Shown here: positions 12,018-15,416 of the stretch, one piece after another
How positions within the stretch are numbered: position 1 is the first letter of the stretch
Layout: each line of letters opens with the position of its first letter
Virus record (IMG/VR): IMGVR_UViG_3300027505_000001
Location: 5,381-69,380 of that record
DNA from: a virus
Direction: 5' to 3' (one strand)
DNA: 64,000 bases
Notes under the pieces: model-generated
What the model was told of the DNA's origin: nothing
Database searches by the model: none
What the model saw: the letters and a program-made list of their open reading frames with translations, nothing else
Program-made: the position numbers and the translations under genes

Positions 12018-12083
12018 GTGGACGGCGATGTCGGCACGCTGGTAAAAGGTATCAGTTCGCTTTAAGCCTTACTCGCCGTACAC
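12018..12083 (-). ncRNA. Solo stem-loop dual-spacer guide unit
   Basis: GTGTACGGCGAGTAAGGC-TTAAAGCGAAC-TGATACCT-TTTACCAGCGT-GCCGACATCGCCGTCCAC; starts at the predicted +1 of the 12091-12119 promoter. Confidence 0.85.
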
Positions 12084-12090
12084 AATTCAA

Positions 12091-12119
12091 GATATGCCAC
12101 ATGTCATGCAAAGAGTCAA
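12091..12119 (-). promoter_or_regulatory. Promoter TTGACT-N17-CATATC with operator ATGACATGTGGCAT
   Basis: Exact spacing; operator at 12094-12107. Confidence 0.78.
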
Positions 12120-12120
12120 G

Positions 12121-12146
12121 AAAAAAGATGCGGCCGTAGCCGCATC
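12121..12146 (-). terminator. Rho-independent terminator after the GH74-like gene
   Basis: GATGCGGC-tacg-GCCGCATC followed by TTTTTT on the minus strand. Confidence 0.8.
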
Positions 12147-12163
12147 CATTGCTTGTTAGTGAT

Positions 12164-15100
12164 TTACTGCACGTTAATCAACCACGCCCCGTCAGCACCG
12201 AGCACGTAGTAGAGCCCGTAGATGAACTGGTCGCCGATGGCGTCACGAATAGGAGCAACAGACCATCCTTGAATAAACGTGGAAATACCACCAGGAGCCA
12301 GGTTTTTCCACGTCCCGTTGGTGCAGCTAGTAACACTACCATTGCTGCCATCGTCGATGGAGCGCCAGATGCCGTACACGGCATTGGCTTCCACGTTTCC
12401 AGCATCGTACCACCCGGCAACAATAATCGACGGATAGGTCTCGTTCGGCGCTACCTTACCAAAACCAACGGTGTGCGGAGTAAAGAACCCAGGCACCGTT
12501 GCCCACGTAACGCTACCAGTGGTATTGTTCACGCCATTGCAGGTACGCTGCAATTTCGTTGCCGAGCCCACGACATACTCAGCATTGCCGCTGCCTTGCG
12601 GCCCCGCGACGTAGAACAGGTGACCAGCCTGTCCGGGCACGACCCGTAGGGTACCATGCACAGTACTTCCCGAAAAACCAGTGGTGTTGGTCACTAAAGT
12701 CGGCGCACCACAGTTAGTCCACTTGAGCAGACCATAGTCAGTGTTGACACCGTAGAAGGTGTTGGCCGTCACCTGATCCGCCGCAATCTCCGTTGCGTAA
12801 TAGCCGGCGCTAATTGGCCAACCTGTGCTCCCGTAAACAACCGCACCGGTGACAATACTGTCGCCAGGCGGGACTACAAAAGCAGTTAAGGTTACGGTAT
12901 TTGTAGCCACCGTGTATTGAGTAGTAGATATTGCCCGCCCAGATGCTAGTTGTATGTTTATTGCGCGGGGAGACACCAGCGTAGCGCCATTCACCACAGT
13001 AAAGACACTAGCACCAGCCGCATACGGCCCACCGGTTACCGTAGTTAGTGGTAGTGGTCCGGCAGGTGCATCAACTTCGCTGTAGCTAGCTCCGCCGTTC
13101 GCCGTGCACATCGGGAACGTCGAATCTGCGCCGTACATTGTCCAGTTAGACGTAGACGCAGCCGCAATACCACCACCAGGGGCGCCCCAAGTGCTGACAA
13201 CCCCGCCAGTCACGTAGCTGTCACCAGTAGCAAACGACGACGACGGCCCTAGGTCGAAGCTTTTGCCGGACAAATTCTGTACAATCCAGCAACCGTTAAC
13301 AACTGTTGTAGTGGTCATCGTCGCCCCGGTTATACAGACAGGATATCCACTGGCAACAAGCGCGGCTAATGTAGTGACCTTTACCTTTCCGCTATCGTTC
13401 ACTACGTTGACTAGAGTACCGTTCCCGACGTAGGAAATCAGCGCTGTAGCAGGCACGTACAGAGTTGTGTTATGAGTTCCAACAACCCCCCAGGTGCTAC
13501 CCTGCAGGGTAACATGCGTAGAGTCAACAACTGTCGCGCCGAAGCAACGAAGCGGCAGTTCACTTTGAGAGTTTAAATCGCCCGAAACAGCGCAAATAAT
13601 CGACCCGGCCCCGGCAGACCAGGTAGTCAATCCCGTCGTGGACGGAACAGTAGCCTCGATAAGACCGCCGCTGTTAGCAAACGCACTTGGAGCTACGGTA
13701 GCGTTCCACGTATTCAACGGCAGGTAGTTTGATACAAACCCGTCAGTGGATACGCCGGAGTAGTCGAAGCCAACATTGAAGTCAGACGACACCTTAGCGA
13801 ACGTTGCCGTGCCGTCTGGCGTGATAGAGAGACCGGAAGCGTACGAGAGTGGAGTGATAGTATTTATCGTACCACAAACTGCCGCGTTATTCGTCAGATT
13901 GTAAGTCGTGCTTAGATGACAAGTACCTTCGTCTTGTACACCGATTGTCACCCCGCCTGCGGAGAAGTTCGCGGCTTTCCCGGTCGGCAACAGTTCCTCG
14001 ACGCCATTAACCTGAGCAGTCCAGGTAAAGGCTGCAGTCGGCAATGGTGTCGTCCAGTAACCCTGGGCATGAGCGGCAAGGAGCCCGCCATTGATTGGAT
14101 CAAAGTCGATGTCCTGGCCTCCAGCCTGCTCGAGAACCTGCATAGTGGCTTGCCACGGAGAGTCGCCACCAGCCCAGCTTGCTGAGTAAGAATTCCAAGT
14201 CGGCGTCGCAACGTTGGCGTTTAGTGTAACCCAAAGCTTAGTAGAACCACCAAGTCCAACAACCTGGTCACCATTACTCGGATTAATGGCAATCGAGTTG
14301 CAGCAAGCGCCTGGTGCAGTCATTTTCAGCCAAGTCGCCGCCGAGTAGCGCCAGATATCTGCCGCGCCATCAATAGCCCATACGTTACCACCACCTGCGG
14401 TAGCATATGAAACTTTCAAACGCCTTACGTTACCAGTAGGACCGCCGGTCGTGGCGGCCCACGCAGTTCCGGCGTTGTTCGTTACATAAACACCACCATT
14501 GCTAGTCCAGATGTAGGCGTTAGTCGAGCAAGTACCTACACCGACATGGCAGAGCATAGTCGCGGTAGGATCGAACGCAACGCGATACCCCATGGTGCCA
14601 GACAGTGGGATCGACGTGGTGGCTATCTGCGTCCAAGTTGGGCTACACGAAGTACCGTTAAACGTTTCCCATACACCCTGCGTTGATAGGGGTGTACTGC
14701 TTACGGTAGTACCGACAATAACGTGGTCATTATTGTTCGGATCAACAGCAAGTGTAGGCCCTTCGAAGCGCGTATTGTGTAAGTTTGCCGGGTCTAACGT
14801 CTGCTGTACCATATTGCCGTTATCACGGCACCATGTCGTTCCGGTGCCAGGCAGACCGTTTTGTAGGTTAGATGTGTAGAATACATAACCGCCGTAGTAC
14901 ATATAAGCGGCACTTGCGTTGGTATTGCTTGCCGCTATCTCGTCAATTGAGAGCCCATAGCCATTCGGAATGAAGTCACCTGACGACATGCTCGATGCAG
15001 TGATAAGCTGCTGCCATATCGGATATTGGTTACCGCCCCATACATACAGGCCACCAGCATCAGTACGCGCGAGACGCACACCGGTTCCAGGCGGTGTACT

Positions 15101-15223
15101 CATGCCTGATATCAGTCCACCGCCACCAATCTTTAGGCGTTGGATAGTCGGCGGTGCTTGCGCCACCGCCGAGCTTGCCATCGTAAAAGCAAGAAAGGCT
15201 GAAACTGCGGCCTTATACGTCAT
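12164..15223 (-). CDS. GH74 (xyloglucanase)-like double beta-propeller protein, about 1019 aa
   Basis: KIGGGGLISGM...LARTDAGGLYVW (GH74 N-terminal motif with its Asp), GVQDEG (candidate second Asp), VGFGKVAPNETYPSIIVAG...GIWRSIDDG (GH74 C-terminal motif). The track start at 15397 lies inside a promoter; ATG 15223 gives a signal-peptide-like MTYKAAVSAFLAFTMASSAVAQA. Confidence 0.7.
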   Translation of the reverse strand: MTYKAAVSAFLAFTMASSAVAQAPPTIQRLKIGGGGLISGMSTPPGTGVRLARTDAGGLYVWGGNQYPIWQQLITASSMSSGDFIPNGYGLSIDEIAASNTNASAAYMYYGGYVFYTSNLQNGLPGTGTTWCRDNGNMVQQTLDPANLHNTRFEGPTLAVDPNNNDHVIVGTTVSSTPLSTQGVWETFNGTSCSPTWTQIATTSIPLSGTMGYRVAFDPTATMLCHVGVGTCSTNAYIWTSNGGVYVTNNAGTAWAATTGGPTGNVRRLKVSYATAGGGNVWAIDGAADIWRYSAATWLKMTAPGACCNSIAINPSNGDQVVGLGGSTKLWVTLNANVATPTWNSYSASWAGGDSPWQATMQVLEQAGGQDIDFDPINGGLLAAHAQGYWTTPLPTAAFTWTAQVNGVEELLPTGKAANFSAGGVTIGVQDEGTCHLSTTYNLTNNAAVCGTINTITPLSYASGLSITPDGTATFAKVSSDFNVGFDYSGVSTDGFVSNYLPLNTWNATVAPSAFANSGGLIEATVPSTTGLTTWSAGAGSIICAVSGDLNSQSELPLRCFGATVVDSTHVTLQGSTWGVVGTHNTTLYVPATALISYVGNGTLVNVVNDSGKVKVTTLAALVASGYPVCITGATMTTTTVVNGCWIVQNLSGKSFDLGPSSSFATGDSYVTGGVVSTWGAPGGGIAAASTSNWTMYGADSTFPMCTANGGASYSEVDAPAGPLPLTTVTGGPYAAGASVFTVVNGATLVSPRAINIQLASGRAISTTQYTVATNTVTLTAFVVPPGDSIVTGAVVYGSTGWPISAGYYATEIAADQVTANTFYGVNTDYGLLKWTNCGAPTLVTNTTGFSGSTVHGTLRVVPGQAGHLFYVAGPQGSGNAEYVVGSATKLQRTCNGVNNTTGSVTWATVPGFFTPHTVGFGKVAPNETYPSIIVAGWYDAGNVEANAVYGIWRSIDDGSNGSVTSCTNGTWKNLAPGGISTFIQGWSVAPIRDAIGDQFIYGLYYVLGADGAWLINVQ

Positions 15224-15314
15224 ATTCAAGATATTACCCAAGTTGTACTCTCCTTTTAGGGCGTATCGCCCGATAGATACCACGTATGGTATCCGTCGCG
15301 CGATAAGCATGTAT

Positions 15315-15380
15315 GTGGACGGTGAGCGCGGCTTACTCTTTAAAGGCGTCATACCTTGGCTAGCCTTACTCACCGTCCAC
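15315..15380 (-). ncRNA. Solo stem-loop dual-spacer guide unit (variant core TGACGCCT)
   Basis: GTGGACGGTGAGTAAGGC-TAGCCAAGGTA-TGACGCCT-TTAAAGAGTAA-GCCGCGCTCACCGTCCAC; 11+8+11 loop, starts at the predicted +1. Confidence 0.78.
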
Positions 15381-15387
15381 AATTCAA

Positions 15388-15416
15388 GATATGCCATGTG
15401 TCATATCCTTAGTCAA
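15388..15416 (-). promoter_or_regulatory. Promoter TTGACT-N17-CATATC with operator ATGACACATGGCAT
   Basis: Exact spacing; near-copy of the 12091-12119 promoter and leader. Confidence 0.78.

Follow-up and report, generated by a model that had tools for sequence, protein, structure and literature searches.

The stretch of viral DNA analysed here (the window; 64,000 nucleotides, positions 5,381 to 69,380 of IMG/VR record IMGVR_UViG_3300027505_000001) makes up most of a 69,469-nucleotide (nt) phage contig, that of a 69-kb phage. It carries a large open reading frame (ORF) bracketed by two short cassettes, A (15416-15315) and B (12119-12018), which lie on the minus strand together with the genes around them, just where a first-pass annotation had placed them. 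The cassettes share a common build, consisting of a -35 element TTGACT, a 17-nt spacer with a terminal TGG, a -10 element CATATC, seven nucleotides (TTGAATT) and a long hairpin. A ribosome-binding site (RBS) and then the large ORF follow downstream of cassette A, and an RBS and an ORF of 60 amino acids (aa; 11951-11769), the first in a run of small early ORFs, follow unit B; there is no terminator after either hairpin. Based on the sequence features described below, A and B are probably stem-loop tigRNA genes of a phage TIGR-TasA system, each standing alone behind a promoter of its own.

The two cassettes are the most alike pair of their kind in the window, in direct orientation and 3.3 kb apart. 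The 19-nt string TGGCATATCTTGAATTGTG occurs in exactly two copies (12081-12099 and 15378-15396; 0.03 expected) within a 56-nt repeat of 82% identity (12065-12120 and 15362-15417; repeat family D9), and these 19 bp are the longest perfect identity between A and B. The promoter half of the repeat is common to a family of about 19 sites; what is specific to the pair is that the identity runs on through a 7-nt discriminator and both arms of the stem. In unit A, GTGGACGGTGAG pairs with CTCACCGTCCAC in 12 perfect pairs, and in unit B, GTGTACGGCGA pairs with TCGCCGTCCAC in 10 of 11 positions, with one U/C mismatch. Both sequences form the predicted hairpin on folding (z = -8.1 for A and -2.7 for B), and they score 46.5 bits (E 5e-11) and 52 bits (E 1e-12), respectively, against a covariance model of the family. 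The compensatory change between the stems from which the first-pass annotation had argued is present, but it amounts to exactly one pair (U-A to C-G) and is thin evidence alone; the strong covariation comes from a family of 14 such units.

That family is defined by the 8-nt loop repeat of unit B, TGATACCT, of which the window holds 11 copies where 1.1 would be expected. Each of these copies, and each of three variants with one or two changed bases (unit A included), sits in the middle of a 30-nt loop that is closed by a 12-18-bp stem of variable sequence. The loop reads C-U-W, nine nucleotides, UG-AUAC-CU-N, nine nucleotides and U-G, which is a box C and a box D twice with two 9-nt spacers. 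All 14 units align without gaps, save for a single extra base in one of them. The pattern of the alignment is C-U-N10-U-G twice with the loop repeat UGAUACCU between, and both A and B fit it, A with a terminal AG. G-C-U at the 5' loop edge, U-G and C-C-U in the core, and G at the 3' edge are invariant, and in 13 of the 14 units a U precedes that last G. Unit A is the most deviant member, with two changes in its loop repeat and AG instead of UG as its terminal box D.

The stems covary strongly. Over 18 bp, 73.8% of the cells in the alignment are paired, compared with 33-44% when the partners are slid, and both partners vary in 16 of the 18 stem pairs. Covariation scored 0.59, shuffled alignments 0.22, and none of 500 shuffles reached the observed value. 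With filters off, the covariance model returns the 14 sites and no others at E <= 8e-6 (11.5 bits for the next independent locus), with the sense strands far outscoring the antisense strands; no further unit was detected in the remaining 5.5 kb of the genome, nor in relatives without Tas. These results bear out the earlier view that the hairpins are a real RNA structure. No Rfam family matched the window at gathering thresholds, scanning the array region by E-value turned up only microRNA matches at chance level, and megablast of the region against the phage database gave no match. We dropped the idea that GGCT-N10-TGATACCT is a second promoter (sigma-54-like or of a phage sigma factor), since conservation ahead of the loop is limited to G-C-U and the flanking arms show the covariation of a stem. 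Antitermination hairpins of the nut or put type, RNase III sites and CsrB-like protein sponges were likewise set aside, given the box C/D symmetry and the presence of TasA.

A candidate effector is encoded in the same genome. Single-sequence searches with the 284-aa product of ORF 36848-37702 gave weak matches only (a phrog annotated "transposase", Transposase_20 at E 0.04 and Protein Data Bank (PDB) entry 9MTY at E 0.068). Its family is large and mostly viral, with 2,174 representatives at E <= 1e-3, and a profile of 40 family sequences matched TasR (9MTY) at E 2.8e-12 and TasH at E 0.0025. The AF2 model has a pLDDT of 92, and in a Foldseek search against the PDB the ten best matches were all TIGR-Tas proteins (TasR and TasH complexes), followed by IS110 recombinases and Nop5. 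As the protein has no nuclease domain, it is a TasA. Together with the box C/D anatomy of the units, this gene in the same genome upholds the "guide" reading of the first-pass annotation. The promoter-proximal location given there holds too.

Searches for Tas relatives gave none in GTDB species genomes, none in a single-protein scan of IMG/VR, and only two distant ones by alignment. In one contig, L007, the Tas protein is 51% identical and more than eight units surround tas, with CCA and UG boxes in both halves. The boxes of the present phage (C-U...U-G) and those of L007 (CCA...UG) are thus each alike in the two halves of the unit and differ between the two lineages, which means that they covary between lineages, as expected for a dimeric reader. 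Among the relatives with 34-51% identical TasA, the CCA and UG boxes stand with other loop repeats (L007 9690-9975 and 10863-11180; L013 about 1500-3010), and in one L007 unit (9690-9760) the second spacer segment is too long. A restrictive pattern scan of a complete relative, G001, placed units only next to tas; two pattern matches far from tas in that genome have no closing stem and were taken as chance.

The features of the locus, of the tasA operon and of the remaining units are collected in the table. Ten of the 14 units are in or adjoin the plus-strand operon of the tasA ORF (36.3-37.9 kb), where the itemised units are one inside a 182-aa ORF, three upstream of tasA and four downstream of it. 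The operon runs from its promoter at 36025 through the 182-aa ORF with its unit, the three units, the 284-aa ORF and the four units to a small ORF and a tyrosine integrase gene (38113-39183), and the downstream array lies between tasA and the integrase, which has a generic PF00589 match only. The stop codon of tasA is the TGA of the loop repeat in unit e37700. The L007 homologue of the 182-aa protein (21% identity, E 4e-10) carries a unit in the same linker (9343-9408, inside ORF 9142-9687). The four solitary units, A, B, e50527 (50.5 kb) and e53276 (53.2 kb), lie 12.8-25 kb from tasA, A at 21.5 kb and B at 24.8 kb. The cassette of e50527 is placed antisense between two minus-strand baseplate genes, and with its own promoter and T-run this unit looks like a free-standing small-RNA gene and could be one.

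Table. Positions of the candidate tigRNA loci, the large ORF and associated features in the window.
Feature	Position	Strand	Details
Large ORF	12164-15241	-	about 1019-1025 aa; likely start TTG 15241, 8 nt after AAGGAG, or ATG 15223
Intrinsic terminator of large ORF	12121-12147	-	9-bp stem, 4-nt loop, T-run; hairpin 12147-12126; abuts -35 of cassette B
Promoter of cassette A	15388-15416	-	-35 TTGACT 15416-15411; -10 CATATC 15393-15388; in repeat families D1 and D3 and in motif scan
14-bp palindrome in promoter A	15404-15391	-	ATGACAcaTGGCAT
tigRNA unit A	15315-15380	-	from sequence, alignment, covariance model and folding
Unit A, 5' arm	15380-15363	-	
Unit A, box C	15363-15361	-	C-U-A
Unit A, spacer A	15360-15352	-	GCCAAGGTA
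Unit A, loop repeat	15351-15344	-	TGACGCCT
Unit A, spacer B	15342-15334	-	TAAAGAGTA
Unit A, 3' arm	15332-15315	-	
Promoter of cassette B	12091-12119	-	-35 TTGACT 12119-12114; -10 CATATC 12096-12091; palindrome 12107-12094
tigRNA unit B	12018-12083	-	from sequence, alignment, covariance model and folding
Unit B, 5' arm	12083-12066	-	
Unit B, box C	12066-12064	-	C-U-U
Unit B, spacer A	12063-12055	-	AAAGCGAAC
Unit B, loop repeat	12054-12047	-	TGATACCT
Unit B, spacer B	12045-12037	-	TTACCAGCG
Unit B, box D	12036-12035	-	UG
Unit B, 3' arm	12035-12018	-	
tasA	36848-37702	+	284 aa; Nop domain and coiled coil, no nuclease domain; from profile search, AF2 model and Foldseek
Operon promoter	36025-36053	+	
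Intragenic tigRNA unit	36266-36331	+	inside coding sequence of conserved 182-aa ORF 36074-36622, the operon's first gene
Upstream array	36624-36823	+	three tigRNA units; loop repeats start at 36653, 36724, 36787
Downstream array	37671-37932	+	four tigRNA units; loop repeats at 37700, 37764, 37832, 37896
Solitary cassette with e50527	50464-50566	+	promoter 50464-50492; tigRNA unit 50498-50564, loop repeat TGACACCT; T-run
Locus with solitary unit e53276 and two-unit module	53216-53655	+	promoter about 53216-53246; unit 53247-53312
Two-unit module e53556 and e53619	53527-53655	+	scaffold paralogue of e36724 and e36787; all four spacers differ
Promoter-family sites, examples	6819-6847, 10611-10652, 18092-18133, 18616-18657, 19900-19928		
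Promoter-family sites, further	22228-22256, 23244-23272, 34030-34058, 36025-36053, 50464-50492		

Stem-loop TIGR-TasA is a known kind of system, and the arrangement in this phage can be compared with those published (Faure et al. 2025, PMC12045711; Xu et al. 2026, 10.64898/2026.09.09.750476; Guan et al. 2026, 10.64898/2026.08.11.744272). In stem-loop TIGR arrays, variable palindromic stems replace the edge repeats and a short conserved loop lies between the spacers (PMC12045711). The units described here resemble those of PlTasA (from a Peromyscus leucopus gut contig), BlTasA and MbTasA in having a variable yet consistently palindromic stem in place of edge repeats, two 9-nt spacers flanked by boxes C and D in each hairpin loop, a short conserved loop repeat between these spacers, and the same boxes in the terminal and the internal halves. 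The spacer length falls within the 8-12 nt that define stem-loop TIGR units. As in those systems, the element itself encodes the Tas protein, a Nop-domain protein without a nuclease and of phage origin. Units may lie upstream of, downstream of or inside genes (10.64898/2026.09.09.750476), as they do here and in the PlTasA, BlTasA and MbTasA systems. The published intragenic units, however, are in tas itself and not in the gene upstream of tasA, and while the ten operon units form tandem arrays adjoining tas, A and B do not; as single units far from tasA, they are classed as orphan members of the guide family rather than as an array. The phage further differs in that 4 of its 14 units are solitary, each with its own promoter and a predicted start at the stem base, and in that A and B are predicted 5' leaders of messenger RNAs (mRNAs).

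The box C of this phage, C-U-W, is close to the CUU of PateTasR, whose boxes are CUU and UG (10.64898/2026.09.09.750476), whereas its nearest relatives found, L007 and L013, have CCA. Dual-repeat TIGR arrays (TaTasR, SpTasH and FpTasA) share with these units the two 9-nt spacers, the UG box D and the box C/D pair at both ends and, by analogy, may share an 18-bp target read over both strands and a dimeric Nop-domain effector; TasR and TasH are also the best PDB matches of the protein. Such arrays nevertheless have edge repeats, where this phage has long variable stems, and units of 36 nt instead of about 66 nt, and the present protein is without a nuclease. The IS110 bridge RNAs and the box C/D sRNAs are similar in that a Nop-type RNA-binding domain is involved (IS621, ISCro4 and Nop5 come after Tas in the fold search) and in that guide segments are shown in stem-closed loops. 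Unlike in IS110, there is no DEDD recombinase domain, and one loop carries two spacers in place of a target loop and a donor loop; unlike in box C/D sRNA systems, no fibrillarin or L7Ae partner was seen in this phage.

The promoter half of the cassettes belongs to a wider class. Repeat-family and motif scans of the window gave about 19 promoter-like sites on both strands that share TTGAC-N5-ATGACAnnTGGCATA(T/A), with a 14-bp palindrome, ATGnCAnnTGnCAT, inside the promoter spacer. This palindrome is probably an operator for a phage regulator, and the family looks like the phage's own operator-bearing promoter class. An ORF at 34123-34875 has a weak Peptidase_S24 (CI/LexA-like) match. Four units (A, B and those at 50498 and 53247) begin 6-7 nt past the -10 element of a TTGAC-N17-CATAT promoter, which puts the predicted start site at the stem base. 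The RNA starts near 12084 and 15381 anticipated in the first-pass annotation agree with this fixed 7-nt distance between -10 element and stem in A and B. In the 5' untranslated region (UTR) of the large gene, between unit A and the RBS (15293-15262, minus strand), there is a perfect 7-bp palindrome, GATACCA-TACG-TGGTATC, which resembles the operator palindrome and is followed by a small GC hairpin.

If A and B are tigRNA genes, a sigma-70-type promoter of the operator-bearing class would fire with a predicted start at the first nucleotide of the stem (about 15380 in A and about 12083 in B). The nascent 5' end would fold into a 12-18-bp stem and a 30-nt loop with two 9-nt spacers between box C (C-U-W or C-U-N) and box D (U-G), and a TasA dimer, encoded 21-25 kb away, would bind the two box C/D pairs. 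A and B would at the same time be the 5' leaders of the large-gene mRNA and of the next early operon, and a host RNase would cut each unit from the message that follows, that of the secreted beta-propeller gene in A and that of the early operon in B. Since cleavage by published TIGR-Tas leaves an 8-nt 3' overhang, the deduced target strand carries spacer A and then spacer B in reverse complement, and the ribonucleoprotein would bind an 18-bp DNA site with one such strand. TasA and dead TasR are RNA-guided transcriptional repressors (10.64898/2026.09.09.750476), and because this TasA is without a nuclease domain, the complex would likely bind its site and block transcription rather than cleave the DNA. 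What the sequence shows is the anatomy of the 14-unit family and its covariation, that the effector gene is a tasA, and a promoter motif at constant spacing; RNA expression, TasA binding, processing and repression are expected by analogy with the published TIGR-Tas work.

Several points weigh against this reading. Transcription, start sites and processing are all deduced from sequence; the -10 element CATATC is non-canonical, and a generic promoter scan does not list the promoter sites of A and B. The 14 sites that the covariance model finds are also those from which it was made. Unit A, with its deviant loop repeat and AG for the terminal UG of box D, may be weakened, and both A and B lie outside any array and far from tas, which is beyond the published layouts. 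No target was found either: searching both spacer arrangements with up to four mismatches and 0-2-bp gaps, we found no self-target in the phage with two or fewer mismatches in 18, match counts were at chance level (for three mismatches, 3 observed and 2.0 expected), and no exact 18-mer target for A or B exists in IMG/VR. Of the three-mismatch matches, neither that of unit A (36580-36597) nor that of e50527 (50405-50422) is significant; the e50527 match falls inside the start of the neighbouring Baseplate_J gene, about 90 nt away from the e50527 gene.

The hairpins might instead act mainly in cis as 5'-leader elements, either stabilising the 5' end or serving as TasA-binding sites that tune downstream translation or decay. 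A and B do lie at the very 5' end of protein-coding transcripts without a terminator after the hairpin, the UTR of A holds two more hairpins before the RBS, and the deviations of unit A in box D and loop repeat would suit such a role. However, wholly different spacers on conserved scaffolds are expected of guides and not of a structural leader, the same type of unit recurs in arrays and as a stand-alone gene of promoter, hairpin and T-run at 50498-50566, and the box C/D invariants would be superfluous for a simple stabiliser; we therefore consider a predominantly cis role improbable. Still further from our expectation, to the point of being hardly credible, is that the elements are folded DNA sites for the tyrosine integrase, similar to attC or loxP, with the large gene as an integron-style cassette. 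The four-unit array does abut the integrase gene. In addition, the stems change in sequence but keep their structure, as attC sites do, and the 8-nt conserved core resembles a crossover spacer. Yet the 11 nt that separate the core from the inverted repeats on either side are not themselves inverted repeats, which led us to reject attC- and loxP-like sites; the stem bases have no conserved sequence and no R' or R'' core sites, the conserved core being in mid-loop, 11 nt from each arm. Every unit moreover runs in the direction of a promoter or of the tasA operon, the sense strands score far higher than the antisense strands, the motif obeys box C/D rules, and a TasA gene is present. The large gene resembles phage morons and integron cassettes in being self-contained, with a promoter and a terminator of its own, and in standing between repeated structured elements, but in integron cassettes these repeats are attC sites and not tigRNA genes with promoters, and there is no integron integrase here; nor was any presence/absence polymorphism found for this gene.

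The first-pass annotation had also proposed that the cassettes are direct-repeat substrates for recombination, between which the 3.2-kb gene and its terminator were inserted or could be deleted, and that they may act as gene-shuffling hotspots. The similarity of A and B fits this proposal, since they are the most alike scaffold pair (30 of 36 stem positions), with a 19-bp exact stretch in direct orientation. The enclosed gene looks like a moron, with its own promoter motif, its own terminator as stated in the first-pass annotation (a hairpin followed by a T-run) and a GC content of 0.54 against about 0.50. Its homologues, 57-63% identical, are found in unrelated contexts in other phage contigs, one of them beside a Peptidase_S74 tail-fibre gene. 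On the other hand, the contigs with these homologues have no tigRNA units and no operator motif; the gene does move between genomes, but not visibly via these repeats. Relatives sharing the neighbouring exonuclease (49-58% identity) have no comparable gene downstream of it, but these comparators are distant and not syntenic, so that no empty site can be scored in them. Over every stretch compared, the sister contigs show 100% identity, save for one tandem duplication difference; the large gene and its two cassettes were read in two sister contigs, three others fell into the same group for this region, and no deletion or empty-site variant occurs among those that cover the region. At 50.5 and 53.2 kb, the remaining solitary cassettes border on core baseplate genes rather than morons, and 19 bp of exact identity is a poor substrate for homologous recombination. 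We regard recombination between the cassettes as unlikely; a fair reading is that the promoter-guide module was locally duplicated when the large gene arrived.

From either likely start, the N-terminus of the large-gene product looks like a signal peptide. The gene had been called GH74-like, for which only a remote (transitive) homology to BNR and Sortilin-Vps10 beta-propeller proteins speaks; there is no Pfam match even at E <= 1 and no PDB sequence match, and Atlas scores of 0.78-0.83 are leads only. Public gene calls start this ORF at ATG 15397, inside promoter A and across unit A, to give 1077 aa (15397-12164). This call through promoter A should be shortened, and the hairpins should not be annotated as terminators.

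The comparison of scaffolds within the family bears on the spacers. Between A and B, 30 of 36 stem positions but only 5 of 18 spacer positions are identical (Fisher p 1e-4), which agrees with the earlier statement that the spacers differ entirely. The same contrast holds for e36787 and e53619 (27/36 and 1/18; p 9.2e-7) and for e36724 and e53556 (27/36 and 3/18; p 5.8e-5), and spacer identity is at chance level in all three pairs. A and B also share unpaired bases, namely the 7-nt discriminator and an internal-loop UAA, which would point to a fairly recent duplication and then a wholesale change of both spacers. This pattern argues for A and B being recent scaffold paralogues whose spacers were wholly replaced, in a duplication that probably accompanied the arrival of the large gene.

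Orphan, promoter-fused units are not described in PMC12045711, 10.64898/2026.09.09.750476 or 10.64898/2026.08.11.744272. As a tentative suggestion, which we hold to be possible rather than probable, this phage may have made tigRNAs into separate genes, some of which double as mRNA leaders, and the scaffold paralogues may be the footprint of spacer replacement on a fixed scaffold. If so, a start at the stem base would make 5' processing unnecessary, the supply of guides would follow the regulatory programme of the phage, and leader units would couple the release of a guide to the fate of the downstream message. The first descriptions of TIGR-Tas systems date from 2025-2026, and natural targets, biogenesis and spacer renewal are named in the field as open questions. 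From sequence alone, Xu et al. (2026) could not separate an origin of tigRNAs from a longer precursor from one at their own promoter (10.64898/2026.09.09.750476); four units fixed 6-7 nt behind recognisable promoters make promoter versus processing directly testable. The pairs A/B, e36724/e53556 and e36787/e53619, in which stems, linkers and unpaired bases are kept and spacers are swapped, would be concrete material on how spacers change and on guide renewal in TIGR systems. In addition, searches of tas neighbourhoods can miss guides, as 4 of the 14 units here are 12.8-25 kb away.

A few minor observations concern the surroundings of these elements. The intragenic unit at 36266-36331 sits in a low-complexity linker, and tasA, four tigRNAs, the small ORF and the tyrosine integrase form one co-oriented block (37671-39183), with the same order in L007; a role of TasA in helping phage integrases has been put forward as speculation (Faure et al. 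2025, PMC12045711). The hairpin of 50498-50564 could also terminate the minus-strand gene 50927-50562, and the three plus-strand units of 53216-53655 occupy gaps between small minus-strand late-region ORFs, antisense to those. A perfect 60-nt tandem duplication at 31462-31581 is present as a single copy in sister contig L005, and it is the sole difference among the stretches compared.

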